From: an uncultured Bacteroidales bacterium
Lineage (GTDB): Bacteria; Bacteroidota; Bacteroidia; Bacteroidales; FEN-979
Direction of reading: 5' to 3'
NCBI GenBank assembly: GCA_903926565.1
Contig: CAIYJU010000135.1
Coordinates: forward strand, 6,751 to 70,750
DNA length: 64,000 bases
The first letter of the stretch is position 1. Every line of letters starts with the position of its first letter. Below, one piece after another: positions 2,512 to 20,059 of the stretch. A program made the translations under genes and the position numbers. Below the pieces are notes generated by a model, which searched no databases, was not told the DNA's origin, and saw nothing but the letters and a program-made list of their open reading frames with translations.

Positions 2512-2523
2512 GTTCAGGTTGAT

Positions 2524-3577: not shown

Positions 3578-3850
3578 CTATTGAGAAACGCTGTCCATCC
3601 CTTCAAAGGAATTGAGTCTTTCGAAGGCGGTTATTTCCAGTTTATCATCCATCTTCACCAAATAAAAAAGCCTTACCTGTTTCGGCGGGAGGTTCATTGA
3701 TTTCAGGAAGGAATCATCCTCATAAACCTCGGCGATGGAATTCCAGTTCTCCTGAACCTTCTCAATTTTAATAACCGTAACGTCGTAACAGTTAATATTC
3801 TCTTTCAGGAAATTAACCACTGTTTTTTTCACATCGATAATATTGCTCAT
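3578..3850 (-). CDS. GvpO-like small protein
   Basis: 90 aa. The segment VTVIKIEKVQENWNSIAEVYED...LFYLVKMDDKLEITAFERL has the same layout I recall for haloarchaeal GvpO (..EGWRTVVEVVER...YEITLD..G.VTGYE..). Called from similarity by eye only. Confidence 0.5.
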   Translation of the reverse strand: MSNIIDVKKTVVNFLKENINCYDVTVIKIEKVQENWNSIAEVYEDDSFLKSMNLPPKQVRLFYLVKMDDKLEITAFERLNSFEGMDSVSQ

Positions 3851-3918
3851 TGTCTCCTCCAGTTATTTTATGTTTTCATAGTCACAGGGATGGTTTGCGG
3901 GTCTGAATGTATCCGGTG

Positions 3919-4155
3919 CTATCTGTTTTGTTTATCGGCTCTGATCCTTTCAAGTAATTTCAACAACTCGTCTTCTCTTTCGTCGTATTCCTCTTCGTTA
4001 ATTTCATCCATTTCAAATTTCAGCTGCAGGGCCATCAGCCTCTCCTTGATGGCTCCTTCATCCGACATTTCCCTGTCGATCACTTCATTTATTTTCTTCC
4101 CGATAAAAATAACTCCTTTTAACGGAGCCAACAGGATGTCGTCAATTAAAAACAT
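3919..4155 (-). CDS. gvpG: gas vesicle protein GvpG
   Basis: 78 aa. MFLIDDILLAPLKGVIFIGKKINEVIDRE...EINEEEYDEREDELLKLLE is the GvpG pattern. 1-nt gap to the upstream gene. Confidence 0.8.
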   Translation of the reverse strand: MFLIDDILLAPLKGVIFIGKKINEVIDREMSDEGAIKERLMALQLKFEMDEINEEEYDEREDELLKLLERIRADKQNR

Positions 4156-4156
4156 G

Positions 4157-4939
4157 TTAAACTCCTTTAGTCTGGATTACAAGGTTGACAAAATTATAGG
4201 GAGGCAGCGTTCCGACGTATTTGAACGTCATCAATTTCCCGTATTTTTCGTCGAGGTCGGTCACGGCCTTGTCGAAGTCCGGCTCCACCGTGTTTTTTAT
4301 GAGAAATGCCGCGTTAAGTATCATCATTTCGCCATAATTGTCGTTGATTTTCTGGTCGTCTGAAAGCGGAGTAAGAACATCCATGATCATGTTTTTGTAA
4401 TTTCCCGTCTCCTTCTTCAGCGCTTCGGCAACCATTTCGCCAATTTTCATGCGCTGATAATGTGTTTTATCGACGGGCAGGTTGATCAGTTTTCCGCGCA
4501 ATGTTTTTATTTCATCATATTTTTCAATGATACTTTCGTACAACGGGGCTTCATGTGCAAGTACCTTCAGGCCCAGTTCCTTCTTCCCATCCATTTTAAG
4601 AAGAAGGTCGTCAAATTTTTTATATTCCTTTGCCAGGATGTTCAGAAGGCCTGAATCATCGTCATATTCGGAAATGGTTGAAAACCGCACCGGGAGCACG
4701 GTGAATTGCTTCATCACCTCCTCCAGCACCTTTTCATGCGTTGTCATGTTAACCCTCCTGGCTTCATATTGTATGACCGGCGAATTACTTACAACAGCAG
4801 TGACATCCTTGTAATTGATGCCATACACCCGGTCGGAGCGGACACCAATTCCGATGGGTCCGAATTCGATCGGGCCGGAATGCCTGATAATCCCGTAAAT
4901 GTACTTTCCTTCCTTTGGTATTCCAGCTGCTTCGCTCAT
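4157..4939 (-). CDS. GvpF/GvpL family gas vesicle protein (paralog 3)
   Basis: 260 aa. KYIYGII... N-terminus, MILNAAFLIKN motif, C-terminal GTLPPYNFVNL. Confidence 0.85.
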   Translation of the reverse strand: MSEAAGIPKEGKYIYGIIRHSGPIEFGPIGIGVRSDRVYGINYKDVTAVVSNSPVIQYEARRVNMTTHEKVLEEVMKQFTVLPVRFSTISEYDDDSGLLNILAKEYKKFDDLLLKMDGKKELGLKVLAHEAPLYESIIEKYDEIKTLRGKLINLPVDKTHYQRMKIGEMVAEALKKETGNYKNMIMDVLTPLSDDQKINDNYGEMMILNAAFLIKNTVEPDFDKAVTDLDEKYGKLMTFKYVGTLPPYNFVNLVIQTKGV

Positions 4940-4961
4940 ATAATGATTCGATTTATATTAG

Positions 4962-5735
4962 TTACAATTCCCATTTTTCAGGAAATATTTTAAGGTCAAT
5001 AAAATTAAAGATCGGCAGGGGTGCGGTATAAACAAAGTCGCTCCGATCCTGGTAAGTCGCGCCAATACCGGCCATGATGTTGTCAAATTCGATCTCCCTG
5101 CCGCTGTTGACCAGGAAGGCAGTATTCATGAACACCGCATCGCTGCTTGTTTTATTGTGCTTATATTCGAACACCGACCGGCGAAATGCATCAATAATGT
5201 TGTCGGACTCCTCCGCTTTCTTTTCAAGCAGAAGGCGTTCGACCATATGACCCGCTTCGTCTATCTTCATGTTCCTCTCCTTTGAGTCGCCCAGTACTTC
5301 AATTTCAGCCCTGAGCTTTTGAAGTTCAACGTGTTGCCGGTCGATTTCCTGGTAGATGACACCCATGTTTTTCCAGGTTCCCCGCACATTCAGTTCCACC
5401 TTGTTTTCGAATTGCTTCAGCAGTTCCATAAACTCACTGTACCTGCGGTTCAGGAGATTCCTGATCTCATCCGGGGTTGCTGCGATGGTGCCGAACCTGA
5501 TGGGCAGGATGCTTCTGAATTCCTTCATCACCTCTTCTATCACTTTCTGGTGGGCCAGCATGTTTTCGGGGTTGACGACAAACCGACTTAGCGGATGATC
5601 ACTCACCACCATGCACAAGCCTTCGAACCCGATGGTTGAGACAAGGTCTGCACGTCCGCCCACGCCTATCGGCCCCAGGTTGATGTCATAATCTGATGCA
5701 ATGATGCAATAAATGTATTTTCCGTCGCGCTGCAT
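4962..5735 (-). CDS. GvpF/GvpL family gas vesicle protein (paralog 2)
   Basis: 257 aa. KYIYCIIAS...GPIGVGGR...VSDHP, MNTAFLVNS motif, C-terminal PLPIFNFIDL. Confidence 0.85.
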   Translation of the reverse strand: MQRDGKYIYCIIASDYDINLGPIGVGGRADLVSTIGFEGLCMVVSDHPLSRFVVNPENMLAHQKVIEEVMKEFRSILPIRFGTIAATPDEIRNLLNRRYSEFMELLKQFENKVELNVRGTWKNMGVIYQEIDRQHVELQKLRAEIEVLGDSKERNMKIDEAGHMVERLLLEKKAEESDNIIDAFRRSVFEYKHNKTSSDAVFMNTAFLVNSGREIEFDNIMAGIGATYQDRSDFVYTAPLPIFNFIDLKIFPEKWEL

Positions 5736-5736
5736 A

Positions 5737-6777
5737 TTAATCCTTTATTTTAACCAAAATCAAATTCCCGGCAACATCTTCCTTCGCCAGGGATATTACT
5801 TCATCTTTAACCGACTGTCTGACTGAAGCAGCATAGTCAAGCAGGGAGTGGTAGGCCTCAAGGATGATGTTGAAATTCTCAGTATCACTGCTGTCGTGAT
5901 TGTTGTCGGGATGAAATTGCTTTGCTTTTTCCAGGTAGGCCCTTTTTATCTCCTGCTCGGATATTTTCTCCCTGACACCCAGCGCTTTCCGTGCCTGATC
6001 TACCTTGTCGGCATTCAACGCAACAACCTCCAGCGTGAAAAAACTGTAACAGGGCAACGGGCCTATCAGTTTAAAATTCAGGACCCCCTGGTATTTTTCG
6101 TCAAGCATGTCAATTGCATGCTCAAACTTTTCCCTTTTATTCCTGTTTATTAAAAATGCAGAATTTAAGATCATCTCGTCATTCATCACTTCATGCATTT
6201 TGATATCGAGGCCGTAAGGGGATAATACATCCAGCACCTTCAGCTCAACATCCTTATTTTCGGTATCCAACCTCTCTTTTATCAGCATACCTACTTTTAC
6301 CTGATCAACTTTTGTCAGGGCATGATTGTTTTGCAAGAGTTCGACTTTCAGCGCATTGATTTCGGGATGGGTGGAAATATCCTGAAGCAGCCCGGGAAAA
6401 TCACCCCATGTTACAACCAGGTCTATTTCAGTCAGGTACTCAATCTTCTTCAGGGCATCTATGATCAGATCATGACCACAGGTAAGAATTTTGAGCACCT
6501 CATCCGTTGAAGTTACGATGGTGCCAAGCCTCATTGGGAGGATCATGGTGAATCCCTTCCGCTGGAGTTCTTCGATGGTTTCCTGGTGATGGACCAGCAA
6601 ATAAGCCAGGGATTCCCTGTCTGAAAAATTGACTTCGGAGCTGTCTCTTTCTGAAACAATGGCCGAAATATTTTGAAACGTAACCGCATAAACTCCCGAA
6701 TTTTCAAGAGTTTGAAATTGGGTTGTACCATAAAAATTGGGCACAATCCCATAGATGTATAATCCTTTTGCTGTCAT
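5737..6777 (-). CDS. GvpF/GvpL family protein fused to a C-terminal DnaJ-type J-domain
   Basis: 346 aa. Residues 1-250 are GvpF/L-like (LYIYGIV..., MILNSAFLINRNK, GPLPCYSFFTL). Residues about 258-320 read ARKALGVREKISEQEIKRAYLEKAKQFHPDNNHD..ENFNIILEAYHSLLD, a J-domain. The HPD tripeptide is at nt 5913-5905, verified on the DNA. Confidence 0.8.
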   Translation of the reverse strand: MTAKGLYIYGIVPNFYGTTQFQTLENSGVYAVTFQNISAIVSERDSSEVNFSDRESLAYLLVHHQETIEELQRKGFTMILPMRLGTIVTSTDEVLKILTCGHDLIIDALKKIEYLTEIDLVVTWGDFPGLLQDISTHPEINALKVELLQNNHALTKVDQVKVGMLIKERLDTENKDVELKVLDVLSPYGLDIKMHEVMNDEMILNSAFLINRNKREKFEHAIDMLDEKYQGVLNFKLIGPLPCYSFFTLEVVALNADKVDQARKALGVREKISEQEIKRAYLEKAKQFHPDNNHDSSDTENFNIILEAYHSLLDYAASVRQSVKDEVISLAKEDVAGNLILVKIKD

Positions 6778-6839
6778 ATCAGTTGGTTGGTTGAATAAAC
6801 CCTCCGGGTATTAAAAACCCGGAAGGTTTCGGGTTCCGC

Positions 6840-8999
6840 TTACTTCTTCGTTATGTTTTGCTTCAATACCAGTTGTATTGCTTCTTCAAAATGTGTTTCC
6901 AAAATTGATATTTCACCAGAATTCACCTTGCCATTGTCCCTGTTTTTTTCAATCAGTTCCCGGATGGCAAGCATTGCAGCTTTGCGGCATACAAATTCGA
7001 TATCCGACCCCGTCATGGTATCGGTTTTAAGAGCGAGCTTCGCGATGTTTACTTTTTTCCCAAGGGGTTTGTTCCTTGTATGTATATGGAATATCTGCTC
7101 CCTGGTTTTCACATCCGGCAATGGCAATTCGAAGATCAGGTCGAACCGGCCGCTTCTGAGCAGGGCGGGATCTATCAAATCGATCCTGTTGGTTGCTGCG
7201 AGTACAATAACGCCTTTCAAATCCTCAATCCCATCCATTTCTGTAAGAAACTGCCCGATAACTCTTTCAATTACGCCGGAACCTGAGCCATCGTTGCTGC
7301 GCCTGGGTGTCAGACTGTCAATTTCGTCGAGGAAGAGGATGCATGGAGATGCCTGCTTTGCCATCCTGAAGAGTTCGCGTACCCCTTTTTCCGATTCACC
7401 GATATAACGGCTCAGGATCTGGGGCCCTTTTACTGAAATGAAATTCACGCCGCTTTCGCTTGCCAGCGCTTTGGCCAGGTATGTTTTGCCGGTTCCCGGT
7501 TTCCCGTGAAGGATAATTCCCTTGGGGGGCCGTGTATCAGCTTTCTTAAACAGTTCAGCATACTGGAGCGGCCATTCCACTGTCTCTTTCAGTGCCTCCT
7601 TTATTTCGTCAAGGCCGCCAACATCTTCCCATTTCACATCAGGCACCTCTACGAAAACCTCCCTGATTGCCGAAGGTTCCACCTCTTTCATGGCATCCGT
7701 AAAGTTGTCCATGGTCACTTCCAGCGCCATCAATATTTCGTATGGAATTTCGGCCATCGCAAAATCGATTTGCGGCAATATTTTCCGCAGGGCGGTCATG
7801 GCGGCTTCCCGGGCCAGCGCTTCAAGATCGGCACCCACAAATCCGTGGGTGATTTCGGCCAGTTTTTCCATATCCACATCCATCGACAGCGGAATCCCCC
7901 GGGTGTGGATGAGGAGAATTTCCAGCCTTCCCTTTTTGTCGGGGATGGAGATTGAAATTTCACGGTCAAACCTTCCGGGTCTTCTCAGTGCGGGATCAAT
8001 GGAATTAGGGATGTTGGTCGCGCCGATCACGATGACCTTCCCTCTCGATTCAAGGCCATCCATCAATGACAACAGTTGGGCGACAACACGTTTTTCAACC
8101 TGTTTTTCTCCCCCCATCTCCTCCCTTTTGGGGGCAATGGCATCAATTTCATCGATAAAGATAATGGAAGGCGCATGGGCCTGGGCCTCCTCAAAAAGTT
8201 TACGGATCCGGCCTTCGCTCTCCCCGTAAAATTTACCCATGATCTCCGGGCCGGAGATGTTGATAAAATAGGCATCTGTTTCCTGTGCAACCGCCCTGAC
8301 AATGAGTGTTTTTCCGGTTCCCGGAGGCCCGTAGAGGAATACCCCCTTGGGTGGCTGGATCCCCAGCCGGTCAAATATTTCCGGATACTTGAGGGGAAGT
8401 TCAATCATCTCCCTGATACGCTGAACCTGGTTGCCAAGTCCGCCGATATCCTCGTAAGAGACCTTGCTCCGGTGCTCTCCGTCCTGCTTTGCCAGTTCAA
8501 GCTGAAAAATGGTATTCGGGTGGATCAGCACGATCCCCTCCGGGTTGACACCGGTAACCGTATAATTCACTGAGCGTGAGCCGAATAAATTCGCCCTCAC
8601 TTTATCGCCTTTTATCACAGGCAGCCCACTGAACAAAGAACCGATATATTTTGAGTCATCAGCCTTGAACAAAGAGCCTGATTTAGTGTCTGGCTTTAAC
8701 TTTATTTTTATCGCCTGGCGGAAGGTTGCTTTTTCAACAGTCACTTTCTCATCGATCCCTGCCTGGGCATTTTCCCTGGTAATCCCGTCAATTTGAATGA
8801 GGCGCTTGTCCCTGTCTTCCGGATAACAAGGCATGATTTTTACCGGTGTTGCACGCTTGCCTTCAATCACAACAAGGTCGCCACTTTCCAGGTCAAGCAA
8901 TTTCATGTCTTTCGGGTCGATCCTTGCGATGGCCCTTCCAACGTCCTTTACCAGGGCTTCCTTTACACGGAGGATTATGTCGCTTTTTGTTTTAGTCAT
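6840..8999 (-). CDS. Cdc48/VCP/VAT-like AAA+ ATPase (Cdc48-N domain plus two AAA+ modules)
   Basis: 719 aa. Cdc48-type N-domain ([40 protein letters not shown]...). Two Walker A motifs ([18 protein letters not shown]) and two Walker B motifs ([20 protein letters not shown]). Confidence 0.9.
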
Positions 9000-9008
9000 T
9001 GCTGAAAT

Positions 9009-9944
9009 TTATTCAAACAGGCACATTTTCAACTTATTCAGAGCATCCAGCCCTTTTATCTCTTCTGCGAACCTTTGCACTTCAACTTTGTTTAAATGAC
9101 GAAAGGTTTCGTTGATGCCGGTTAAATAAGGCAATTGGCTGGCTTTGCTCCGCCTGCAGAATCCGCATTCATCCGAAACCATCACATTGTTTACAATGAG
9201 CTGTCGTGCAACGATACCAGAACTGGCAAGAATCGACAGCAATCTTTCTGTTTCCCTCATTGCCATTGCTTCCGGAATGCAAACCGGGATAAATTCACAC
9301 CGGGTTGCATCGCGCAGGATGTTTTCAATCCTTTTGACAGTCCTTTTCAGGCTGAGTAAAAGCACATCCACGTCATCATGCTGGTAGGATCCTGAAAAAC
9401 TGGTGATCATGTACCGGTATTTCCACCTCATTCTTGCAGCCACCTTGATCCAGTCGTCCAATAACTTCGGAGAAGATATCAACCTTAAGGCATGCCCGGT
9501 GGGTGCAGTATCCACAACATATTTATCGTATTCCCCCTGTTCCATGAAATCGGTGATGGTTTTAAAACTCATCACCTCGTCGATGCCGGGAATCGACAGG
9601 GCAAGCATCTCTTCAATATCCTGGTTATCAAGATTTGTTGAAGTTTCGAGCAACTTTTTCAGTTCAGCCTGATGCGCACTGATAAATACTGAAAGCGCCT
9701 CGTCGGCAAATACTTCAATCGCAGAGAGGTTGGGGCTGCCATCTACTTTAACTACCTGGAATCCAATTTTCTGACCAAGGCAATCCGACACGGAATGCGC
9801 CGGATCAGTTGAGATAAGCAATGTTTTAAAATTTTCAGCCAGTGACATGGCTGTGGCAACGGCACAACTGGTTTTTCCAACACCGCCTTTTCCGCCAAAA
9901 ATGAGAAGTTTCAGGTCGCTGTTATCTAAGCCCTTCAGTCCCAT
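9009..9944 (-). CDS. ArsA/Get3(TRC40)-family P-loop ATPase
   Basis: 311 aa. Deviant Walker A GGKGGVGKTS, STDPAHSVSD, switch II DTAPTGHALRL, and a Get3-style CxxC (SDECGFCRR). 4-nt gap to hsp20 and 9-nt gap to the cdc48-like gene. Confidence 0.85.
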   Translation of the reverse strand: MGLKGLDNSDLKLLIFGGKGGVGKTSCAVATAMSLAENFKTLLISTDPAHSVSDCLGQKIGFQVVKVDGSPNLSAIEVFADEALSVFISAHQAELKKLLETSTNLDNQDIEEMLALSIPGIDEVMSFKTITDFMEQGEYDKYVVDTAPTGHALRLISSPKLLDDWIKVAARMRWKYRYMITSFSGSYQHDDVDVLLLSLKRTVKRIENILRDATRCEFIPVCIPEAMAMRETERLLSILASSGIVARQLIVNNVMVSDECGFCRRSKASQLPYLTGINETFRHLNKVEVQRFAEEIKGLDALNKLKMCLFE

Positions 9945-9948
9945 TGCG

Positions 9949-10467
9949 CTATTTTTTTATCCTGATCTCAAGGATGCCGTTTGTAAATTTATGCCTTAGA
10001 TTTTTCCTTTCGGCTTTTTCAGGAAGCAGCACTTCCTTGCGGTATGACCTGCTTTTGTTGACTGCTGAAATTTCAAGGATATCTTCTTTCAAATCAATAA
10101 CAATGTCATTTTCCTCGATTCCCGGCATTTCTGCAATAATCACAAGTTCATTCTTTTCATTAAAGATGTCGGTAATGGGTTCCCGTTCTTCATCCACTTT
10201 GGGTCCCTCGGGTGTTTTTTTGATATTGCCGAAAGTTTCTACTTTCGGGCTTCCGCCAACTGCCGTGTTTATTGTAAAGCCATAGACACCTTTCATTCCT
10301 TTTTTGATGTGGTCAAAATTGAGCTCCCCTTCCTTTTTAATGCCACCCTTTTCATCGAGTTTCCCTGCAAGGTCAACAAGTTTCTCAATACCTTTGAACA
10401 GATCACCAAGTCCGAAAAATCCGGTATCGGCTTCGTCCTTTTTTTTATTATTCTTATCGTTGTCCAT
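9949..10467 (-). CDS. Hsp20/alpha-crystallin family small heat-shock protein (GvpH-position protein)
   Basis: 172 aa. C-terminal alpha-crystallin domain ELVIIAEMPGIEENDIVIDLKEDILEISA...RKEVLLPEKAE...KFTNGILEIRIKK. Confidence 0.8.
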   Translation of the reverse strand: MDNDKNNKKKDEADTGFFGLGDLFKGIEKLVDLAGKLDEKGGIKKEGELNFDHIKKGMKGVYGFTINTAVGGSPKVETFGNIKKTPEGPKVDEEREPITDIFNEKNELVIIAEMPGIEENDIVIDLKEDILEISAVNKSRSYRKEVLLPEKAERKNLRHKFTNGILEIRIKK

Positions 10468-10529
10468 TGTGAATCATGTTAATACGGTTTATAGAAAAAC
10501 TATTCCAGCCTCCGCCTGAACGGGGGAAG

Positions 10530-10829
10530 TTACTCCGGCCTGTTCATCGCCTCCAGTTTCTCCAGACGCGACACCAGCTCTTCCTGGTGCTGCATCAGCT
10601 CCTTCTCCCTGGCTTTTGTTGAAAGGTACGTATCTTCCTGCCACCAGTTGATCCCCATCTCCATCGCCTTGTCGACCGAAGCGATCAGCAACCTGATTTT
10701 GATGGTCAGCAGATCAATATCCGCTATCTGAATTTTTATATCTCCTGCAATTACGATTCCCTTGTCGAGGACTCTTTCAAGAATATCGGCAAGACCTGTC
10801 GCCTGAATGGAGTGGGTAGGTTCTGACAT
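10530..10829 (-). CDS. gvpJ: gas vesicle protein GvpJ (GvpA family with C-terminal extension)
   Basis: 99 aa. LADILERVLDKGIVIAGDIKIQIADIDLLTIKIRLLIASVDKAMEMGINWW is the GvpJ-type core. Confidence 0.85.
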   Translation of the reverse strand: MSEPTHSIQATGLADILERVLDKGIVIAGDIKIQIADIDLLTIKIRLLIASVDKAMEMGINWWQEDTYLSTKAREKELMQHQEELVSRLEKLEAMNRPE

Positions 10830-10839
10830 TGCATTTTTT

Positions 10840-11154
10840 TTAATAATCTATTGACATGGTCTTCCATGCTTTCTCATCATCCTTCTTTGGTTTTTTACTC
10901 TTTTCTGCAGGTTTGACGGAATGCATGTCCCCGGCTTTTTCATCATAATAGGCCTGGATCTCTTTCAGCCTGTCCTGGATGATTTCAAGTCTCAGTAAGA
11001 TCCGGACCTCTTCACTTTTCAGCCGGGTTCTCTCCTTTTCGAACATGTACAATTTTATAAAATCCGAATCTTCCTTGTTTGGAATACCCGATTTAACGAC
11101 ATTCTGCATGCTCTTGATGCTCTGAAGTCCCTTTAGTGCAGTTGATATTGGCAT
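10840..11154 (-). CDS. small coiled-coil protein directly downstream of gvpN (possible GvpV-position analog), function unknown
   Basis: 104 aa. Heptad-like central segment (LYMFEKERTRLKSEEVRILLRLEIIQDRLKEIQ) and a Lys-rich tail. Tightly packed in the operon. No family recognised with confidence. Confidence 0.55.
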   Translation of the reverse strand: MPISTALKGLQSIKSMQNVVKSGIPNKEDSDFIKLYMFEKERTRLKSEEVRILLRLEIIQDRLKEIQAYYDEKAGDMHSVKPAEKSKKPKKDDEKAWKTMSIDY

Positions 11155-11182
11155 GACATTGATTTTTTAATGCGGATGGATG

Positions 11183-12118
11183 TTATTGCGCAATTTTTAA
11201 ACTGGTGTATTGTTCTATCAGTTCGTTCACGATGAATTTCACCTTTTCCTGGTTGGTTTTTGAGCCAATCCTGCTGGTTTCTGACGTAAGAATATCCTGG
11301 CAGATTTTCCGGAACATATCTTTTGATTTCGAGGGTGTTGTTTTCAGGGTTGCCAGTGTTTTGGCAATCATGATGGAACCGCGGATGGTCGGATCGAATT
11401 CCGTTTTCCCTGATTCACGCAAACCTCTCACAATTTTAACGATAATTTCGGTATCCTTTAACGACAATTGCGATTTGGCCCTGGTAATCTGCAATTCGGT
11501 TTCATAGTCGAAATGGTCCAGGTCCATGGTCACCATGCGGTCGCGCAGTGCATCCTGCGTGCGGTTAACACCGGCATACTCTTCAGGGTTTGACGTAAAG
11601 ATGGCACGGAATTCAGGGTGTACCTTCATATAGTAATCCTCCTCCTTTGCTGCCGATGTGCTTAACATCCGCTCCTGAAGAATCGGAAGCAGGATATTGT
11701 TGGCCTCAGGACGTGAACGCGTAAATTCATCGTAGATCAGGGTGAACCCGTTTTTCACTGCGATGGTTAAACGGTTGTTCACCCATTGCTTGGTCATGTC
11801 CTCTTCATACTTATGAACAGAATGGATGAATTTGTCGTCAAGCTTTTTATATTTATACCCCTGTTCACTTCCGATCAAATCGGAAGTTTTATACTCGGCA
11901 TCACCATGGATAATGACAACAGGCCGGCCGATTTTACTTGCCAGGTGCATGGCTACCGTCGTTTTCCCGGTACCTGAAGGCCCCCTGAAATGAACCGGGA
12001 ATCCAGCCTGGATATACGTAAGGCCGCGGCTGGTGATGTCCCTTATGTAATCCGTTTCTACAAAATTGGACATCGGCTTCAGTTCAAGCACGGTATTCAT
12101 CTCATTGTTGTTGCTCAT
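11183..12118 (-). CDS. gvpN: gas vesicle protein GvpN (MoxR/CbbQ-like AAA+ ATPase)
   Basis: 311 aa. FVETDYIRDITSRGLTYIQAGFPVHFRGPSGTGKTTVAMHLA... and Walker B LIYDEFTRS are typical GvpN features. Confidence 0.9.
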   Translation of the reverse strand: MSNNNEMNTVLELKPMSNFVETDYIRDITSRGLTYIQAGFPVHFRGPSGTGKTTVAMHLASKIGRPVVIIHGDAEYKTSDLIGSEQGYKYKKLDDKFIHSVHKYEEDMTKQWVNNRLTIAVKNGFTLIYDEFTRSRPEANNILLPILQERMLSTSAAKEEDYYMKVHPEFRAIFTSNPEEYAGVNRTQDALRDRMVTMDLDHFDYETELQITRAKSQLSLKDTEIIVKIVRGLRESGKTEFDPTIRGSIMIAKTLATLKTTPSKSKDMFRKICQDILTSETSRIGSKTNQEKVKFIVNELIEQYTSLKIAQ

Positions 12119-12163
12119 TGTTGGTATAGTTTGTGCAAATGTGCTGGTTAATTTTGATTTGTA

Positions 12164-12343
12164 TTAAAAAGGCAGGTTCGGCAGCTGCTTCAGCGTCTCC
12201 TCCCAGATGGTCCTGGCTTCCTCAATCTCCTTTGTTATCTCTTCCCTTGCTGTCAGGAACGCGATCTTCCTTTCCCTGAACCTTTCCAGTGCAGCCTGCC
12301 GTTTGATCATGCTGTTCCTGATACCCGCTCCGACGTTTTTCAT
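12164..12343 (-). CDS. unlisted 59-aa ORF between the zinc-finger gene and gvpN (hypothetical)
   Basis: Below the ORF-track length cutoff. Hand translation: MKNVGAGIRNSMIKRQAALERFRERKIAFLTAREEITKEIEEARTIWEETLKQLPNLPF, stop TAA at 12166-12164. Same strand as the operon, 15 nt after the upstream stop and 45 nt before the gvpN ATG. Confidence 0.35.
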   Translation of the reverse strand: MKNVGAGIRNSMIKRQAALERFRERKIAFLTAREEITKEIEEARTIWEETLKQLPNLPF

Positions 12344-12358
12344 TTTCAGATACCCTGA

Positions 12359-12673
12359 TCAGGCGCCAAACCCTTTGCCTTTGCATTGCGTGCACGGCAG
12401 GTTATCTCCTGATTTGCCAGTCCCTTTGCATTTCAGGCACACATTGCTGCCGGCAACGTGATTGCTCCCTTTTCCGCTACACACAATACACGGCACCCTT
12501 GCTCCCAGCGGGTTTTTACCGGACCCGGCACAAAAAACGCATTTCATCAAGGGTTTCTCAACATTCACACGTCCGAGGCCATTGCATGCCAGGCAATGTG
12601 AGATTGAGGAAAGCAGGTCAAAAGGATCCTTGCCTGTGCCGCTGCAAAACGGGCAATTAAAAACTTCTATCAT
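12359..12673 (-). CDS. stand-alone DnaJ-type cysteine-rich zinc-finger protein (six CxxCxGxG repeats)
   Basis: 104 aa containing CPFCSGTG, CLACNGLG, CVFCAGSG, CIVCSGKG, CLKCKGTG and CTQCKGKG. This is the CxxCxGxG repeat of the DnaJ central domain, with no J-domain or C-terminal domains. Confidence 0.8.
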   Translation of the reverse strand: MIEVFNCPFCSGTGKDPFDLLSSISHCLACNGLGRVNVEKPLMKCVFCAGSGKNPLGARVPCIVCSGKGSNHVAGSNVCLKCKGTGKSGDNLPCTQCKGKGFGA

Positions 12674-12713
12674 GGGGCAAAATCATTTGGAAAATGAATG
12701 ACGAAGAACCGGG

Positions 12714-13922
12714 TTATTTCAACGGGAAGTAAATGTTGTCAATTTTCTGCACTTTACCCTCGTCGAGCAAACCTTTGGCGGTAAAGCCAAGTTTCATGCG
12801 TGTTTCTCCCAGTGGTGCTTCCATCTCCGAGATCTTTACGCCCTTGGGATGTTTATTAATAAAATCCAGCACCTTATCTTCAAGTTTCAGGGGCTCTTCC
12901 TTAAATGTGGCAAATGCAAGAACTTCCTGGGCCGGAACGGCACTTACTGCCTCAGCCGGGGCTGCCTTTGCAGGGGCTGCAGGGGCCTCTTTTTTCGCCT
13001 CCTGTTTTTCAGCTTTCTTCGGTGCCTGTTTGGGTGCGGGAACAACGCCAGTTTTCCTGATATGGTCCATCGCACTTTTCATTTTATTCCATTCGGCCGA
13101 TGCCTCAACCCGGTTTTGCAGCAGATCATCCAGCATTGCACCGGTTGATTTCTGTACATCCCTGACCTCTTTCCGGATATCTTTAATAGAGACATGAATG
13201 CCTTTCATGATTGCATTAAAATCGCTGATCCGTTCGTTTTCGCCTTTGGCAAGATCTTTTCTCAGTTTCTGGGCCATTTTCTGGTTTTCCCTGCCGATTT
13301 CCGACAATCTTTTCTGGAACCCGGAAAGCAGGGTCCTCGTGTACTCAACCCTTTCTCCAAGGTTCTTGGCAAGTTCCGCTCTCAGTTCTGCCGACATGTC
13401 CTGATGTTCCTTTTCAAACCGGTCGAGCATATCATTCGTATTCAGGAAAATTGCCGAAACTTCATCATTGATACTTTTGATATCAGCATTGATGTTTGTC
13501 ATGAGGGCATCAAACTCCTTCATACGTGTTTTTTCATTTTGCGCCCGTCCGGCTCTTTCTTCAGCAAAGGACTTCCCAAGTTCCTCAGCCATCTGCGACC
13601 GCTCAACGGTAAATTCATTGATCATGTTAAACGTGGAAGTTTGAATCGCCACTACTTCCTTCTGGATGGAGGCAATTGTTCCATGGATTCCTGTCATTAA
13701 TCCCTTGAAGTTGCCCAGCCGTTCTTTCTCCCCGCGGGCGAGGCCTTTTCTTAATGCAGCAGCATTTGCATTTAAAGCGGCAGCCATCTCCTGGTGGTCC
13801 TTGCGGAAACCGTCAAGCGTTATCTGCACATCGTTAACAAGTTCTTCATTTTCCCTGATGCGCTGCCTGAATGATGCAAGCAACTCTTCTGTCAGGTTCT
13901 TCATGTCTGATGCTAGTCCCAT
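12714..13922 (-). CDS. repeat-containing coiled-coil protein with Pro/Ala/Lys linker and small C-terminal globular (winged-helix-like?) domain; candidate non-canonical GvpC analog
   Basis: 402 aa. Internal repeats are visible by eye: RKGLARGEKERLGNFKGLMTGIHGTIASIQKEVVAIQTST vs RKDLAKGENERISDFNAIMKGIHVSIKDIRKEVRDVQKST vs RAQNEKTRMKEFDALMTNINADIKSINDEVSAIFLNT. Also FRKDHQEMAAAL vs FEKEHQDMSAEL. These are followed by APKQAPKKAEKQEAKKEAPAAPAKAAPAEA and a roughly 60-aa tail. Confidence 0.75.
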   Translation of the reverse strand: MGLASDMKNLTEELLASFRQRIRENEELVNDVQITLDGFRKDHQEMAAALNANAAALRKGLARGEKERLGNFKGLMTGIHGTIASIQKEVVAIQTSTFNMINEFTVERSQMAEELGKSFAEERAGRAQNEKTRMKEFDALMTNINADIKSINDEVSAIFLNTNDMLDRFEKEHQDMSAELRAELAKNLGERVEYTRTLLSGFQKRLSEIGRENQKMAQKLRKDLAKGENERISDFNAIMKGIHVSIKDIRKEVRDVQKSTGAMLDDLLQNRVEASAEWNKMKSAMDHIRKTGVVPAPKQAPKKAEKQEAKKEAPAAPAKAAPAEAVSAVPAQEVLAFATFKEEPLKLEDKVLDFINKHPKGVKISEMEAPLGETRMKLGFTAKGLLDEGKVQKIDNIYFPLK

Positions 13923-13964
13923 GTTGTTATCTCCTATTTTAGAATTATTGATATGTTACCTGAA

Positions 13965-14621
13965 TTAATTGATCTCCTTGATAATTTGATTTTTTATGCT
14001 TTTTATATCTTTTACCTGGATCTGATCGCCTTTTTCGAGCAAACTTTCCAGGCACTCCATCATCCTGCCGTGCATGTTCTGAAAATCCATGAAGGTCTTC
14101 ATTACTGTTTCCTTCCTCATTTCCTGTACTTTAGAAACCTGGGAAAGTTGCTCCTTGATGATGTTGATTTTTTCGGTGGCATCCTGCGATGTAATGTCCC
14201 TGATGCCGAGCAGGCTTAATTTAAGCGACTGGGCAGTCTCTTTCTGGGATTCGATAAATGAGAGGAACAAAATTTCAGCGGCCCGTTCTTTTTCGTCGAG
14301 CGCGCAAAGAATGCCTGACATCATCGAATAATAATCCTTTTTACGGAGGGATCCGTTTTTTGCCATAATTTCACAAATTCTGAAATTCAGGACTTCCCGC
14401 TCCTTTTTCAGATCGTTGAGAGAATTATGCACGTTGTCGAACAGGCAGTGCGATGATTCTGTAATATTTTCAGATGACTGGAAAGCTGTTTGAATTTTTT
14501 GAATGCGGGTTTCGTAGGAGGTTATGATGTTGTCAAAAAAACCATCGATGTTTAATTCGGGCAGTGGATTCATTCTTGGTAGTTTATTTGCAGGTTTTCG
14601 GGAAAGATGACTTTTTGACAT
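13965..14621 (-). CDS. coiled-coil protein, distant paralog of the 402-aa repeat protein; function unknown
   Basis: 218 aa. Shares motifs with the neighbour: TSYETRIQK vs ASFRQRIRE, and MAKNGSLRKKDYYSMMSGI vs LAKGENERISDFNAIMKGI. It is the first gene after gvpA. The start may instead be the Met at codon 17. Confidence 0.7.
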   Translation of the reverse strand: MSKSHLSRKPANKLPRMNPLPELNIDGFFDNIITSYETRIQKIQTAFQSSENITESSHCLFDNVHNSLNDLKKEREVLNFRICEIMAKNGSLRKKDYYSMMSGILCALDEKERAAEILFLSFIESQKETAQSLKLSLLGIRDITSQDATEKINIIKEQLSQVSKVQEMRKETVMKTFMDFQNMHGRMMECLESLLEKGDQIQVKDIKSIKNQIIKEIN

Positions 14622-14764
14622 TCCCTCATGATAATTATCGGGCCGGGGGTTGGTGTGATCGGGATACTGCAGGCGTGGAAAAAAGAAATTCTTGGTAACT
14701 CATGCTTTCGTGAATAATCAGGGAAGGATGTTTTAGCAAGAATAGCTGTTAATCTGAATGCAAA

Positions 14765-14968
14765 TTAAGCTGCTTTTGCAGTTAATCCGATGGCTTCAGC
14801 ATACTTCAGGTATGTTTCAACAGAGGCAACAACGATTCTTGCTTCAATTGCAAGCAATTCGATACCTACCAAAGAAACTCTTACCCATGCATCAACTACA
14901 ACACCTTTGTCAAGGATACGGTCGATAACTTCAACGAGGCTTGATGATCCGATAGTCTTTTCTACCAT
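14765..14968 (-). CDS. gvpA: major gas vesicle structural protein GvpA
   Basis: 67 aa. [55 protein letters not shown] is near-canonical GvpA. An SD-like GGAG sits about 9 nt upstream of the ATG, which is unusual for this window. Confidence 0.97.
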
Positions 14969-15144
14969 TTTTTTAATCTCCTATATTAAATAAAAAAAAC
15001 CGTGCTTTACATGAGGGACGGTTTACCTCTTGTGCCATGAGTATATACAAAGGGTGAGCCGTAAAAGAGATAATAACCAGGAAAACCCGTTTAAATGAGT
15101 TAAGCCCCTGAAGATGAAAACAAAAAAAAGTGATTTATTTTTTC

Positions 15145-15254: not shown

Positions 15255-16646
15255 TTAATCTTCGCTTTTATTCCCCGGAATATTGTACTTTTTCATTTTC
15301 CGGCTCAGGGCATCGCGGTGTATTCCGAGGGCATCTGCTGCAGCCTGCTGGTTGAACTTGCAAGCCAGCAGCACCTTACGGATCATCTTTATCTCAATCG
15401 TTTTCAAATTTGCTGAATCTGCCTCAGGAACATGCAATTCCGGCTTCGGTCCGTTAAGCGGGAAATCACGGACTTCAAGCCTGTTGCCTTTGCACAGGAT
15501 GGCTGCTCTTTCGACCAGGTTTCTAAGTTCCCGCACATTTCCGGGAAAATCGTATTTCACGAGCACATCAACGGCCTCCTTCGAAACATGGAGGGCAGGT
15601 TTGCTGAATTTCGAGGCATACACTTCAATAAAATAGTTCAGGAGAGGCTTGATATCTTCTGGTCTCTCCCGTAATGCCGGGATGTGAATGTGCAGTGTAT
15701 TGAGCCGGTGGAGGAGGTCGAGCCGGAATTTCTTCTTTGCAACCCTCTTATTAATATCGTGATTGGTTGCTGAAATAATGCGGAAGTTGGTCCGGATCTG
15801 GGCAGTATCGCCAACACGGGTTATCACCTTCTCTTCAGAAGCGCGCAGGATCTTTGCCTGAAGGTTGAGTGGCATATCCGCAATTTCATCCAGGAAAAGT
15901 GTCCCCCCGTTGCATACTTCAAAAAAACCCATTTTATCGGAGACGGCACCGGTAAATGAGCCTTTCTTATGACCAAAAAATTCACTTTCAAGAAGTGTTT
16001 CGGTAATGGCGCTGCTGTTTACCGCACCAAAAATATGATCTTTCCTGTTACTCGAATAGTGTATGATCCTTGCTATGTTCTCCTTGCCAGTTCCACTCTC
16101 CCCGGTAATCAGCACATTGGCATCAGGGTAATTCGCTGCTGCAAGGGCACTTTCAAAAACCTCGAGGATCCGGGGACTGACACCAATAAACTGCCGGTCG
16201 ATTTTCTCTTCAAGGGACTTCGAGATCAATGAGTTCTTCTCCTCCATCTGCTTCAGCCGTCGCTGCATCTGAAGATATTTCTGCGTCCGTTCTATGGCAA
16301 TCTGTATGTCAAGAAACCTGAATGGTTTGCGCAGGTAATCGAATGCCCCGAGACGCATGGCCTTGATTACGGTATCCATGTCACCGTGTGCAGAGATGAC
16401 GATAACCTCCATGAAAGGATAGTCACTTTTTACCTCTTTCAGAATATCGAGTCCATTCACACCCGGCAGGCGCACATCGAGGATGAGCAGGTCAATTGCG
16501 TGGATACTCATGATTTTTTTTCCTTCTGCAGCCGTGTTGGCCTCATACGAATCAAATTCCGAATCGACGAAAAATCCGCTTAACTCTTCCGTAAATTGCT
16601 TTTCATCGTCGAGGATCAGGATCTTGATCTTATTTTTCGCTTCCAT
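15255..16646 (-). CDS. sigma54-dependent Fis-family response regulator (NtrC-type: REC + AAA+ + HTH)
   Basis: 463 aa. REC domain (ILILDDE...DLLILDVRLPG), sigma54-interaction core (GESGTGKENIARIIH, GSFTGA loop, FLDEIADM) and C-terminal HTH (QQAAADALGIHRDALSRKMKKY). Confidence 0.92.
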   Translation of the reverse strand: MEAKNKIKILILDDEKQFTEELSGFFVDSEFDSYEANTAAEGKKIMSIHAIDLLILDVRLPGVNGLDILKEVKSDYPFMEVIVISAHGDMDTVIKAMRLGAFDYLRKPFRFLDIQIAIERTQKYLQMQRRLKQMEEKNSLISKSLEEKIDRQFIGVSPRILEVFESALAAANYPDANVLITGESGTGKENIARIIHYSSNRKDHIFGAVNSSAITETLLESEFFGHKKGSFTGAVSDKMGFFEVCNGGTLFLDEIADMPLNLQAKILRASEEKVITRVGDTAQIRTNFRIISATNHDINKRVAKKKFRLDLLHRLNTLHIHIPALRERPEDIKPLLNYFIEVYASKFSKPALHVSKEAVDVLVKYDFPGNVRELRNLVERAAILCKGNRLEVRDFPLNGPKPELHVPEADSANLKTIEIKMIRKVLLACKFNQQAAADALGIHRDALSRKMKKYNIPGNKSED

Positions 16647-16654
16647 GATGCCAG

Positions 16655-19600
16655 TTACAAGTGACTTGTCAATAATATTTTAACAATTGTTCCATGCATT
16701 TTGTTACTCACAACCTCAATGGTTCCTCCCATTGATTTGATTATCTGATAACAGATCGACAGCCCGAGCCCGGTTCCCTTTCCTTCATCTTTGGTCGTAT
16801 AAAAAGGGAGCATGATGTTGCTTATGTCGTCGGTGCTGATACCAATGCCATTGTCGGCGACTTCAACGATCAGATATCCATTCTCACTGTACGACCTGAT
16901 GTCAACAATCAGTTCACGCGCAGTTCCTTCATGGCCTTTGATGTCGATCACTGCATCTTTGGCATTTACGAGGAGGTTAATCATTACCTGTTCAAATTTA
17001 TACGTATTGCCATGTATCTGAGGAAGGTCCCTGTCAAGCTGAAGGTCCAGTGATATTCCAAGATGCTTGAACTGTTCGGCAATCATTGAAACGGCATTTT
17101 CGATGCTTGAGTTAATGTCAAAGGCTGTCAATAAATAATCATCCTGCGTTCTCGAGAATGTCCTGACATGGTCAATGATGTTTCGTATCCTGGTAATATT
17201 GTCAAAAATCTTTTCTGATTTTTTTACCAGGAAGTCCTGATCCTCACTTCCGGTTTTCGCCTTCTCAAATAAAATTTTATCCATGACCATTGATATGATA
17301 TTCAATGGCTGGTTGATTTCATGGGCGATGCCGGCTGCCATTTCGCCCAGGTTGGCCATCCTGTCGGAATGCATCAGCTTGGTTTCCATTTTTTTACGCT
17401 GGGAAATATCGCGGATAATGATCATAAAGGATAGCGGAGTGCCATCCTGACTTTGTATCAGTGTGGTGCTTATTTCAGCCGGAAACAACGTGTTGTTCCT
17501 CTTTCTTATTTTGAGTTCAATATTTTGTGCGAGCCCTTCATTGATTGTCTTTTCATATAAATCCCGAAACACCCTTCTTTCTTCTGATGGAACAAATGAC
17601 AGGCAATTTTTCCCCACCAGGTCATTCCGGGTCATGGCCCCGAATATTTCCAGCCCGATTTCAGAGGCTTCGCTGATAATTCCCCGGAGGTCGATCAAAA
17701 GAATGCCATCCGGAGAAGCATTCAGCATTGTTCTGTATTTTTCGTCACTCACCTTCCTGGCCTGCTCTTCTCTCTGGAGATCGGTGATATCCAGTGAGAT
17801 TCCAAGCAAATATTCAGGCTCACCCTGATCATCGAACATCGGCATCTTCTGCGTGTGCAATATCCGCACTCCTTTGTGCCTTGTCTGAATAGGCTCCTGG
17901 GGGATATCGGTCAACCTCTTATTGCTGAGAGCCTCGCGGTCTTTTTCCACAAAACCTGCCGCAGTTTCCTTCGGAAGGAAATCAAAGTCACTTTTACCCA
18001 CAAGCTCTTCCTGGGTAAAACCCAGAAGTTCCTCTCCCGCACGGTTGATCCTTACGAAACGCAGATCCTTTGCGTCCTTGATGAAAATCATGTCAGGAAT
18101 ATTATCAATGACCGAATCGAGAAAGCCGTTCACCCTGCGTATCTCTACCTCTGCCTGCTTTCGCTCTGTAACGTCGTGGACAACGGTATACCGGTATTTT
18201 TTCTCCTGGATGTTTATAATTTCAGCAGAGAGCATTACATGTTTGACGTCACCGTTCTTTGCAACCAGGTTCGTTTCAATGTTCATTCCATGCCCTTTAT
18301 CGGCGATCGATTGCAACAATTGGTTTCGACTGTCAACAGTTAAAATGCCCAATTCAAGGGGGGTTTTCCCTATAACTTCTTCTTTGACGAACCCGAGAAG
18401 CCTGCTAAACGCTTCATTTACCTCTATATATTTGCCCGTGATATAATCGTCGAGTCCGCAGGCCGAGGGATTGAGATAAAACACTTTTGAGAATTTCTCC
18501 TCCGACAGCTTGATCTGTGTGATGTCCTTGCTGACACCATAAATTGCCGGTTTCCCATTCCAGTGCCCCTTTGAAATCCTTGTTTCAACTTCAATCCGGA
18601 ACCCCGATTTGGCCATGATCGGGACATTGCAGTAGTCAACTTCTCCACGAAGCATCCCGGCTATAATTTTGCCTGCCTCCTTACGGAGTTCGGGCGGATG
18701 AACCATCAGCACCGATTGTCCGGTCAGTTCTTCCGGAGAGTAGCCAAGTCTTTGTATGACGGTGTTGTTGCAGTGTATAATAGCACCCTGTCCGTCAAGA
18801 ACAAAAAGGAAATCATCGATCGCATTAAAAAAGGTTTCAAAATTGTGATGCATTTGTTGCAACAGGACTTCGGTTTGCTTGCGTCCGGTGATATCGATCA
18901 CATTCATCAGGCATTGATTGTCTTGTCCGACAGTAATGCCTTCAACGTGGACATATTTTGGCCGTTCGCCTCCTGCTTCAAGGATTAGTTCGCATACCTG
19001 TTTTGAATTACTCTTAAAAACGTTCCTGAAAAAGAGATTGAAGGCCGGGAGTGTATTTCCTGAGACAACCCGGTCGAAACGGGTGCCCAATAATTTGGAC
19101 CGGTCACTTGCAAGCATTCGTGTCCCGCTGTAATTGAGATCCTGGATCACTTTGCCCTTTGACAGCGTAAAATAGGCTGACGGAGCAAAATCGTAGAGTT
19201 CTGAATATTTCAGGGAGGTAGCTTCCACCCTGGAATTTGCCTCCAGGAGTTCATCATTCTGCAGTTCCAGTTCAACCTGGTGACTCCTTAAGTTTTCCTC
19301 CATCTCTTTGCGCCGCGTGATGTCAATGGTAAAGCAAAGAAAGAGGTTATCAGAAAGCCTGGTGGCTTCAAGCACCCACCAGCGCAGCTCGCCGCTTTTA
19401 CGCCTGACAAAGATATCCGCCTGTAATGAGCCGTTAGTGATAAGGCTGTTCAAATGAGCCAGCCAATTCAGTTGTGAACTTTCGGTAAGGATATCCGGGA
19501 CAGACAGGGTTAAGAGTTCTTCGGAGGAGTATCCGCTCATTGCACAGGCAGCAGGGTTCACTTCGATGTAATTTCCTTTTTCATCCAGGATAAAAACACC

Positions 19601-20059
19601 GTCAGGGGCATGATCAATATAGCGTTTGTATCTCTGTTTACTTTGCTCCAGCGAAGAACTCAGCGTATCAAATCCCCTCCTTTTCGAAGCCTCCCTGAGT
19701 TCCTTCTCTACAATTGTGATGAAACGGGACATCTTCCCCTTTACCAGGATATCATGCACACCGGCTTTGACTAACTCTACTGCTTTTTCCTCTCCGATCG
19801 TTCCTGAAATGACGATAAACGGGATGTCAATTCCATGTGCATAATAGATTTCGAGTGCAGACTGAACACTGAAACGGGGCATGGAATAATCAGACAGAAT
19901 AATGTCCCAGTTGCCCCGGTTTAGCGCGATGGTCATCTGCTCACCATTCTCAACCCGCTCATAATGTACGTTATAGCCAGATGTACGCAGAATCCTTATG
20001 TTCATCTCGGCATCTGCCTGGTTGTCTTCAATAACCAGCACATTGAGTTTTTTATCCAT
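16655..20059 (-). CDS. hybrid sensor histidine kinase: N-terminal REC, multiple PAS/PAC, HisKA, HATPase_c
   Basis: 1134 aa. REC domain (VLVIEDNQADAE...ILSDYSMP). Several PAS-like blocks, each ending in ..DIT.RK..E. H-box GIAHEINQPLN and ATP-binding region GTGLGLSICYQII. 8-nt gap to the response-regulator gene. Confidence 0.9.
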   Translation of the reverse strand: MDKKLNVLVIEDNQADAEMNIRILRTSGYNVHYERVENGEQMTIALNRGNWDIILSDYSMPRFSVQSALEIYYAHGIDIPFIVISGTIGEEKAVELVKAGVHDILVKGKMSRFITIVEKELREASKRRGFDTLSSSLEQSKQRYKRYIDHAPDGVFILDEKGNYIEVNPAACAMSGYSSEELLTLSVPDILTESSQLNWLAHLNSLITNGSLQADIFVRRKSGELRWWVLEATRLSDNLFLCFTIDITRRKEMEENLRSHQVELELQNDELLEANSRVEATSLKYSELYDFAPSAYFTLSKGKVIQDLNYSGTRMLASDRSKLLGTRFDRVVSGNTLPAFNLFFRNVFKSNSKQVCELILEAGGERPKYVHVEGITVGQDNQCLMNVIDITGRKQTEVLLQQMHHNFETFFNAIDDFLFVLDGQGAIIHCNNTVIQRLGYSPEELTGQSVLMVHPPELRKEAGKIIAGMLRGEVDYCNVPIMAKSGFRIEVETRISKGHWNGKPAIYGVSKDITQIKLSEEKFSKVFYLNPSACGLDDYITGKYIEVNEAFSRLLGFVKEEVIGKTPLELGILTVDSRNQLLQSIADKGHGMNIETNLVAKNGDVKHVMLSAEIINIQEKKYRYTVVHDVTERKQAEVEIRRVNGFLDSVIDNIPDMIFIKDAKDLRFVRINRAGEELLGFTQEELVGKSDFDFLPKETAAGFVEKDREALSNKRLTDIPQEPIQTRHKGVRILHTQKMPMFDDQGEPEYLLGISLDITDLQREEQARKVSDEKYRTMLNASPDGILLIDLRGIISEASEIGLEIFGAMTRNDLVGKNCLSFVPSEERRVFRDLYEKTINEGLAQNIELKIRKRNNTLFPAEISTTLIQSQDGTPLSFMIIIRDISQRKKMETKLMHSDRMANLGEMAAGIAHEINQPLNIISMVMDKILFEKAKTGSEDQDFLVKKSEKIFDNITRIRNIIDHVRTFSRTQDDYLLTAFDINSSIENAVSMIAEQFKHLGISLDLQLDRDLPQIHGNTYKFEQVMINLLVNAKDAVIDIKGHEGTARELIVDIRSYSENGYLIVEVADNGIGISTDDISNIMLPFYTTKDEGKGTGLGLSICYQIIKSMGGTIEVVSNKMHGTIVKILLTSHL

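Follow-up and report, generated by a model that had tools for sequence, protein, structure and literature searches.

Which proteins stand in the place of GvpC in the gas vesicle gene clusters of Bacteroidota? The question is raised by a 64,000-nucleotide stretch of DNA from an uncultured Bacteroidales bacterium (contig CAIYJU010000135.1 of assembly GCA_903926565.1; hereafter the window), which carries a complete gvp cluster on its minus strand at approximately positions 1401-14968. To our knowledge, GvpC alone among the accessory shell proteins of gas vesicles is well understood, and it is the protein through which vesicles are chiefly engineered as ultrasound reporters. Its recognised occurrence is so far limited to cyanobacteria, haloarchaea, and a few proteobacteria. 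In the window, the position directly downstream of gvpA is filled by two proteins encoded side by side on the minus strand, a short one predicted as an open reading frame (ORF) of 218 amino acids (aa) at 13965-14621, with an N-terminal motif, helical repeats, and a tail, and a long one of 402 aa at 12714-13922, with a helical repeat region, a flexible linker, and a winged helix. On the evidence presented below, both are likely to be GvpC-type accessory shell proteins of the gas vesicle, and their family, which fails the curated GvpC models, appears nevertheless to resemble GvpC by the other sequence-level criteria tested.

A paralogous pair in the gvpA-gvpN slot

The gene for the major gas vesicle shell protein, gvpA, lies at 14765-14968 (minus strand, 67 aa; Pfam PF00741 Gas_vesicle, 4.4e-16; NCBIfam GvpA, 7.2e-39), and gvpN, which encodes an AAA+ ATPase (11183-12118, minus strand; TIGR02640, 1.3e-103), closes the slot on the other side of the pair. 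The order gvpA-gvpC-gvpN is annotated in Nostoc and Halobacterium, and the paralogue pair fills the same slot, so that the claim of a first-pass annotation of this DNA, that the two ORFs sit directly downstream of gvpA where GvpC is encoded elsewhere, is borne out by the coordinates and by the order in these two organisms. Homologues are abundant (608 for the short protein and 477 close ones for the long protein); those that carry names are nearly all termed hypothetical, the few remaining labels being unrelated automatic annotations, and no Pfam or NCBIfam family reaches its cut-off for the long paralogue. Because most homologues of the short protein, which are mostly 202 aa long, start at the equivalent of Met17 and the 16 codons upstream of it are not conserved, the true short gene is probably 13965-14573 (202 aa), without the N-terminal extension.

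The relationship between the two proteins became apparent only when distant relatives were included. A single BLASTP comparison was marginal (E 0.025) and profiles of close homologues gave 56% in hhalign, whereas profiles with distant members aligned at 99.5% (E 2.4e-22) over approximately 200 columns, from the N-terminal motif through the repeats. All three motif pairs that had first been taken as signs of common origin fall inside this alignment, namely ASFRQRIRE/TSYETRIQK, the GEKERL..F..LM.GI segment, and F.K.HQ.M...L. The short paralogues of other phyla also carry the tail motif with a conserved Trp (EW.K). Since the N-terminal motif and the repeats align, as does the tail in other phyla, the short protein can be described as the long one minus the linker and the C-terminal domain, and the two are, as far as sequence comparison goes, true paralogues.

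The placement beside gvpA, which the first-pass annotation had recommended following up in other genomes, recurs widely. A family search was performed against 1.84 billion representative proteins (clusters at 50% identity, E<=1e-3), in which 883 clusters matched the long paralogue; many of them differ in the number or length of the repeats and keep the N-terminal motif and the C-terminal domain. In 80 of 80 retrieved Bacteroidota loci, as far as the contig reaches, the order is response regulator, gvpA, short paralogue, long paralogue, and zinc-finger gene, continuing with a 59-aa ORF, gvpN, a 104-aa ORF, gvpJ, Hsp20, and ArsA, and the short paralogue is always located between gvpA and the long one. 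Distant members were also collected from nine further contigs, five of which belong to Cloacimonadota, Atribacterota, Actinomycetota, Aminicenantes, and Nitrospirota according to the names of their metagenome-assembled genomes (MAGs), the other four being metagenome contigs. The short and long genes directly follow gvpA in seven of the nine (the five assigned to these lineages and two of the metagenome contigs), with gvpN visible downstream in six of those seven; one other contig has gvpA, a long-type gene, and gvpN without a short paralogue, and one holds the family gene alone with no neighbours. The nearest public sequences are from lake water, both MAGs of Bacteroidota (several of them Prolixibacteraceae or Draconibacterium) and metagenomes.

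In several cases a single MAG contained two distinct versions of the gene pair, each on its own contig (L005/L066, L006/L009, L013/L020, L014/L033, and L053/L058); either such a genome has two gvp clusters or the bin mixes strains.

Repeats and a predicted single long helix

Self-comparison of the 402-aa protein gave peaks at offsets of 65, 98, 130, and 163 residues, with a best 25-residue window scoring 76 (shuffled sequences: mean 29, standard deviation 5, maximum 50). Together with profile comparison, this resolves three full repeat units of approximately 65-70 aa plus partial units, in agreement with the degenerate repeats that had been noticed in the translation alone. Unit 1 covers residues 25-100 (13623-13850, minus strand, as are all coordinates in this section) and matches unit 2 at 98.6% (E 1.2e-15) and unit 3 at 98.0% (E 2.3e-13) in hhalign; unit 2 covers residues 94-165 (13428-13643) and matches unit 3 at 98.7% (E 2.1e-16); and unit 3, at residues 190-265 (13128-13355), also aligns with residues 58-114 of the short paralogue. 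A half unit at residues 160-198 (13329-13445) matches the first halves of units 1, 2, and 3 at 97.5-97.8%, and the tail residues 262-295 match the unit starts at 91-93% by profile comparison.

In the AlphaFold2 model of the full-length protein (mean predicted local distance difference test score, pLDDT, 80), residues 3-291 (13050-13916) form a continuous amphipathic helix with a pLDDT of 85-95 over most of its length, which would measure approximately 43 nm if straight. A fold search with this model returned matches via the winged helix only, the long helix being without a significant analogue.

One conserved face and a non-heptad period

The hydrophobicity profile of the family showed a single sharp period of 3.615 residues (power 277; 200 shuffles reached at most 96), and the heptad signal at 3.5 residues was absent (power 21), which was also the case in nine distant members, whose hydrophobic period was 3.62-3.64 residues. 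The short paralogue had a period of 3.62 residues (power 140, shuffle maximum 87), and the cyanobacterial GvpC sequences one of 3.65-3.68. Among positions conserved at >=90% in close and distant members, 28 of 32 lie within 60 degrees of one face, with a resultant length of 0.70 that was reached by none of 5000 random sets. This face is composed of Leu (15), Ile (11), Arg (9), and Phe (6), with nine arginines and four threonines in the centre of the stripe, while the opposite face is rich in Lys, Ala, and Glu. For comparison, the hydrophobic face of Nostoc GvpC consists of Leu (11), Thr (5), Arg (5), Ala (4), and Ile (3), and the binding face of GvpC has been described as conserved Leu, Phe, and Arg on one side of the helix, which attaches along the ribs to GvpA helix alpha2 (PMC9994262).

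The repeat lengths follow the same geometry. Repeat periods of 18, 33, 40, 51, 58, 65, 69, 76, 98, 109, and 163 residues were seen in the family, all of which correspond to whole helical turns at 3.627 residues per turn with a root mean square deviation of 0.05; insertions and deletions therefore seem to be tolerated only if the same helical face is kept. An alternative numerical reading, in which approximately 32.6 residues, matching the four-GvpA register of GvpC, would be the common unit of the offsets 65, 98, and 163, was rejected as not general, given that relatives have 51, 58, 69, and 76. Moreover, approximately 60% of the lengths in the range fit whole GvpA subunits at 12.1-12.9 Å, and the common factor is whole helical turns.

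A stripe of this kind could also serve self-association, in which case the two paralogues would pair, with each other or each with itself, via their hydrophobic sides and form rods that position, bundle, or space vesicles with no strengthening of the shell. Two paralogues side by side are what a heteromer would have, the predicted helix is long and uninterrupted, and the linker with the winged helix could act as an attachment end; however, the power of 21 at the heptad period, the nine arginines and four threonines in mid-stripe, which would be unfavourable in a coiled-coil core, and the existence of at least one locus with the long type and without the short one make such a filament or tether rather improbable.

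Relation to GvpC and to other families

To compare the family with GvpC, a profile was built from 16 cyanobacterial GvpC sequences, taken from the annotated Nostoc gvpC and its relatives. With full alignments, hhalign gave 77% (E 2e-5, score 45) for the profile of distant members and 58% (score 39) for that of close members, the E values of both profiles ranging from 2e-5 to 1e-4. Reversed GvpC controls scored 17-20 with either profile, and column shuffles 11 +/- 2 with the distant members. When only GvpC match columns were used, the scores were 36.0 (distant) and 33.5 (close), compared with 15-17 +/- 3 (maximum 25) for shuffles that keep the 11-residue amphipathic phase. The best stretch, which belongs to repeat unit 2, pairs residues 138-169 of the long protein (DALMTNINADIKSINDEVSAIFLNTNDMLDRF) with the N-terminal residues 2-33 of Nostoc GvpC (TALIEKIRQEHQSIAEEVSQLFKETHEFLSST) at 34% identity over 32 residues. 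Remote homology to GvpC is plausible because the scores exceed those of reversed and shuffled controls and because of this 34% identical segment. A 33-residue tandem period is absent from the window protein (offsets 65, 98, 163), and the distant members P0298 and P0331 do show one. The first-pass annotation had considered the proteins possibly unrelated to GvpC on the ground that their repeat length differs; this part of it is not supported in that form, since repeat length varies from 33 to 76 within the family and the GvpC profile scores above its controls. The family is thus probably a distant relative of cyanobacterial GvpC and not an unrelated analogue.

It had also been allowed that the pair might belong to some other well-characterised family, and none was found above cut-off in the Pfam and NCBIfam scans. 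The window proteins and 13 distant members yielded only sub-threshold matches to helical-repeat families, including DUF948 (24.7 bits against a cut-off of 37.2), Apolipoprotein (20.7 against 90), ApoLp-III (15.3 against 36.3), and PhaP_Bmeg (<=15 against 28.3). The labels precomputed for homologues, such as PF23854 DUF7217 and PF06103 DUF948, were likewise discarded, those compared being below their own cut-offs; PF28217 and PF28101 also occur among these labels. A sequence search of the PDB with the family profile returned weak matches to apolipoprotein A-I, GGA1, and designed bundles (E >=0.003) and no GvpC chain.

These similarities bring up an assembly chaperone or scaffold, whose helices would shield unassembled GvpA or template the shell and leave before maturity, in the manner of phasins and apolipoproteins. 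In addition to the weak, sub-threshold resemblance to apolipoprotein A-I, apolipophorin-III, DUF948, and PhaP phasin, the chaperone-type neighbours of the pair (a DnaJ-type zinc finger, Hsp20, ArsA/Get3, a CDC48-like AAA ATPase, and a fusion of GvpL/F with a J domain) are compatible with it. On the other hand, all the profile matches are below curated cut-offs, the arginines of the face and the straight 290-residue stripe suit a periodic lattice more than a monomeric client, the genes occupy the place of the structural gvpC, and the winged helix on its linker would be left unexplained. Such a chaperone is accordingly considered unlikely.

Proposed role on the vesicle shell

The GvpC-type reading can be put as follows. 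Each protein would fold as one very long amphipathic alpha-helix, of approximately 290 residues in the 402-aa protein and approximately 190 in the short one, whose conserved Leu/Ile/Phe/Arg face would lie on the outer GvpA shell, probably along the ribs over GvpA helix alpha2, with the Lys/Ala/Glu-rich opposite face turned to the cytoplasm. Bound in this way, the helix may link adjacent GvpA subunits to each other, with a higher collapse pressure as the result. The long paralogue would in addition hold its winged helix off the vesicle on a flexible linker of approximately 50 residues, where it could bind a partner, i.e., another vesicle, another Gvp protein, or nucleic acid. The analysis itself shows the gene position, the paralogy, the repeats, the predicted fold, the conserved face on one side of the helix, and the conservation of the pair across phyla; binding to vesicles and stiffening, like any role of the winged helix, are inferred. 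The physical design of the long paralogue (a predicted single helix of 290 residues with one Leu/Ile/Arg/Phe face and a period of 3.6) fits an outer-surface binder. The window GvpA is 86% identical to that of Nostoc sphaeroides, and the helix alpha2 segment, the docking site of GvpC (PMC9994262), is identical.

A number of observations weigh against this assignment. The curated models give it no help: Pfam Gas_vesicle_C (PF01304) was absent from both window proteins (E<=0.1) and from the 13 distant members (E<=10), and no GvpC model was among the NCBIfam matches of either set. The 58-77% obtained against cyanobacterial GvpC is below the usual level for homology, helical repeat proteins being prone to false positives; the short paralogue alone showed no similarity to cyanobacterial GvpC (2.4%), nor did the family profile to GvpC of Halobacterium pNRC200 (hhalign, 0.1%). 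It is not obvious how repeat lengths of 51, 58, and 69 would fit the register of four GvpA subunits per 33-residue GvpC repeat. Conserved residues of the short paralogue cluster on one face only weakly (resultant 0.27-0.29), and the AlphaFold2 monomer model is compatible with helices that pair with each other instead of with GvpA. Finally, the sequence was present only in lake-water DNA runs, with no RNA run found.

The linker and the winged helix

After the repeat region of the long paralogue comes a linker in which Pro, Ala, Lys, and Glu are abundant (residues 292-344; 12891-13049, minus strand) and for which disorder is predicted, with a pLDDT of <50 at residues 292-312 and 318-344. The description of this part as PAK-rich agrees with the composition of residues 296-345 (32% Ala, 16% Lys, 14% Glu, 14% Pro) and with the predicted disorder. 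Across the family the linker measures 18-190 aa, its length being variable also within aligned homologues, and because its net charge spans -29 to +9, it looks like a spacer and not like a basic DNA-binding tail. A histone-like DNA-binding linker was rejected as a general feature on account of this charge range.

The C-terminal domain (residues 345-402; 12717-12890, minus strand) was modelled alone with 28 diverse homologues, which gave a pLDDT of 88.8 and the elements H8-17, H25-32, H36-48, E52-55, and E58-61. This topology of three helices and two strands, together with Foldseek matches in the PDB to the winged helices of IclR, TtgV, MarR, Zalpha, and FtsK-gamma (template modelling score 0.74-0.84), upholds the resemblance to a winged helix that had been proposed from the letters. 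Among 28 family C-termini compared with Pfam, MarR_2 was matched by 14 (best E 6.7e-8), RPA_C by 11, and HTH_IclR by 7, and one family member (P0455) reached 29.5 bits against a cut-off of 27 in the comparison with curated helix-turn-helix (HTH) families; the domain of the window itself matched no Pfam family at E<=10. Across the family its net charge is close to zero (median +1 to +2, range -11 to +8), and basic residues are conserved in the wing and where helix 3 begins.

Two further readings depend on this domain. In one of them the long paralogue would be an adaptor with two functions, the helix lying on the shell and the winged helix tying vesicles to the nucleoid or to each other, which may control vesicle spacing and partitioning at cell division, a task that PhaF and PhaM have for storage granules. 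In that case the short paralogue would serve as a plain stiffener, and the ratio of short to long would set vesicle stickiness. We give this reading a small chance. The other is a transcription regulator, in which the winged helix would bind a gvp promoter and the long helix would oligomerise or sense free GvpA, resulting in feedback control. The nearest folds, which are the DNA-binding domains of IclR and MarR, and the conserved basic residues of helix 3 and the wing are what such a regulator might have. Against it stand the near-neutral charge of the domain, whose window copy finds no match among HTH families, the presence of the same helix in the short paralogue, where there is no winged helix, and the design itself, a one-sided helix of 290 residues being unusual in a regulator; winged helices also act as protein-binding modules, as in the O-methyltransferase matches in Foldseek. 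Besides, the cluster already has regulators of its own: a sigma-54-dependent response regulator and a large PAS histidine kinase are encoded just upstream of gvpA (15255-20059, minus strand), and likewise in most related loci. Taken together, a regulatory role is very unlikely. A TGGCAC hexamer resembling a -24 element lies at 15034-15039, approximately 65 nucleotides upstream of the gvpA start; a full sigma-54 consensus upstream of gvpA was not above chance, and no good -12 element follows the hexamer.

Other genes of the cluster and of the window

Between the long paralogue and gvpN lies the gene for a DnaJ-type zinc-finger protein (12359-12673, 104 aa, minus strand, as are the other genes of the cluster; Pfam DnaJ_CXXCXGXG, 8.7e-10, 39.2 bits against a cut-off of 32.7), which consists almost wholly of CXXCXGXG motifs. 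It is found in the same place in nearly all Bacteroidota loci and also in those of Cloacimonadota, Atribacterota, and Actinomycetota, and is regarded as a candidate for an unstudied assembly factor of gas vesicles. The 59-aa ORF between the zinc finger and gvpN (12164-12343) and the 104-aa ORF after gvpN (10840-11154) have no family match, and both are positionally conserved across the Bacteroidota loci.

In the order of transcription, the 104-aa ORF is followed by genes for a GvpJ-like homologue of GvpA, Hsp20, an ArsA/Get3 ATPase, and a CDC48-like AAA ATPase, then by five for GvpL/F proteins, and lastly by gvpK. The first GvpL/F protein carries a C-terminal J domain with an HPD motif (5737-6777; Pfam DnaJ, 1.1e-12), and between the third and the fourth are located gvpG and a 90-aa ORF without a family match (3578-3850). 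The cluster is unusually rich in chaperone-type genes (the J-domain fusion, Hsp20, ArsA/Get3, and the CDC48-like AAA ATPase), and the GvpL/F-J-domain fusion was also found in loci of Atribacterota and Actinomycetota. In seven loci (L026, L039, L046, L047, L055, L056, and L070), an extra 1.4-2.5 kb was observed between the 104-aa ORF and gvpJ, and in L075, where the 104-aa ORF was not detected, an extra segment of this size lies between gvpN and gvpJ; additional genes have therefore been inserted in some clusters.

Two observations concern other parts of the window. The G+C content is 0.34 at 38001-40000 compared with approximately 0.47 elsewhere, and this stretch, which covers ORFs at 38557-39276 and 39261-40553, may be acquired DNA. 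A 727-aa ORF at 23801-25984 (minus strand) contains three copies of the short tandem peptide repeat DPVRVG, preceded by a similar VRVE start.

Significance

If the GvpC-type assignment is true, the reach of the GvpC principle grows to include Bacteroidota and lineages that are known chiefly through metagenomes. The family shows that a repeat may have anything between 33 and 76 residues provided that the same helical face is kept, and its long members would be natural shell proteins that present a folded domain on a linker. The GvpA docking helix is identical to the cyanobacterial one, so that binding should be directly testable with available Anabaena vesicles. Should the weak sequence link prove real, GvpC-type proteins would be older and more widespread than present family models suggest. 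Were the adaptor reading true, it would be the first known link of a gas vesicle shell protein with a nucleic-acid-type binding domain.

Comparison with known systems

Nothing relevant was found in literature searches that covered the family, GvpC of Bacteroidota, and any tie between a winged helix and gas vesicles, and the comparison below is with systems that resemble the pair in part. The phasins PhaF of Pseudomonas putida and PhaM of Ralstonia eutropha coat a storage granule with an amphipathic helix and bind the nucleoid with an Ala/Lys/Pro-rich tail. They share with the long paralogue a helical region that would coat an inclusion and a second module, and the linker in the window is also rich in Pro, Ala, and Lys; however, the profile matches are all sub-threshold, the linker of this family is not consistently basic, and the cargo would be a protein shell and not a polyester granule.

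Another partial parallel is GvpU of Bacillus megaterium, which is a vesicle clustering factor (PMC10903477, its reference 45). This accessory Gvp protein arranges vesicles rather than building the shell, and the linker-borne winged helix might have a role of that kind. The mechanism of GvpU is phase separation, and GvpU differs from the window pair in gene position and architecture.

Among the GvpC proteins themselves, which have been described as helical, those of haloarchaea have alpha-helical repeats that vary between 32 and 38 residues, together with an extended linker and a C-terminal domain of compact fold (PMC10903477). The layout of repeats, linker, and compact C-terminal domain, as well as the gvpA-gvpC-gvpN position, is therefore common to GvpC of Halobacterium salinarum and the long paralogue, whereas Halobacterium GvpC is strongly acidic, with a Cys/His motif (CRVCEEYYQAITEPHLQTHE) in the C-terminal domain where a winged helix is present here.

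Cyanobacterial GvpC (Anabaena, Nostoc) differs from the family in several respects: a fixed 33-residue repeat there compared with units of 65-70 residues here and of 33-76 in the family, and a C-terminal FRQDLF.SIFG tail there that the window family is without, while the long paralogue is approximately twice as long, has a linker and a winged helix, and comes as one of a paralogue pair. In both systems, however, the gene follows gvpA and precedes gvpN, and the protein is an all-alpha long helix of tandem repeats (as predicted here), with a non-heptad period (3.65-3.68 residues there, 3.62 here) and one conserved Leu/Phe/Arg face.

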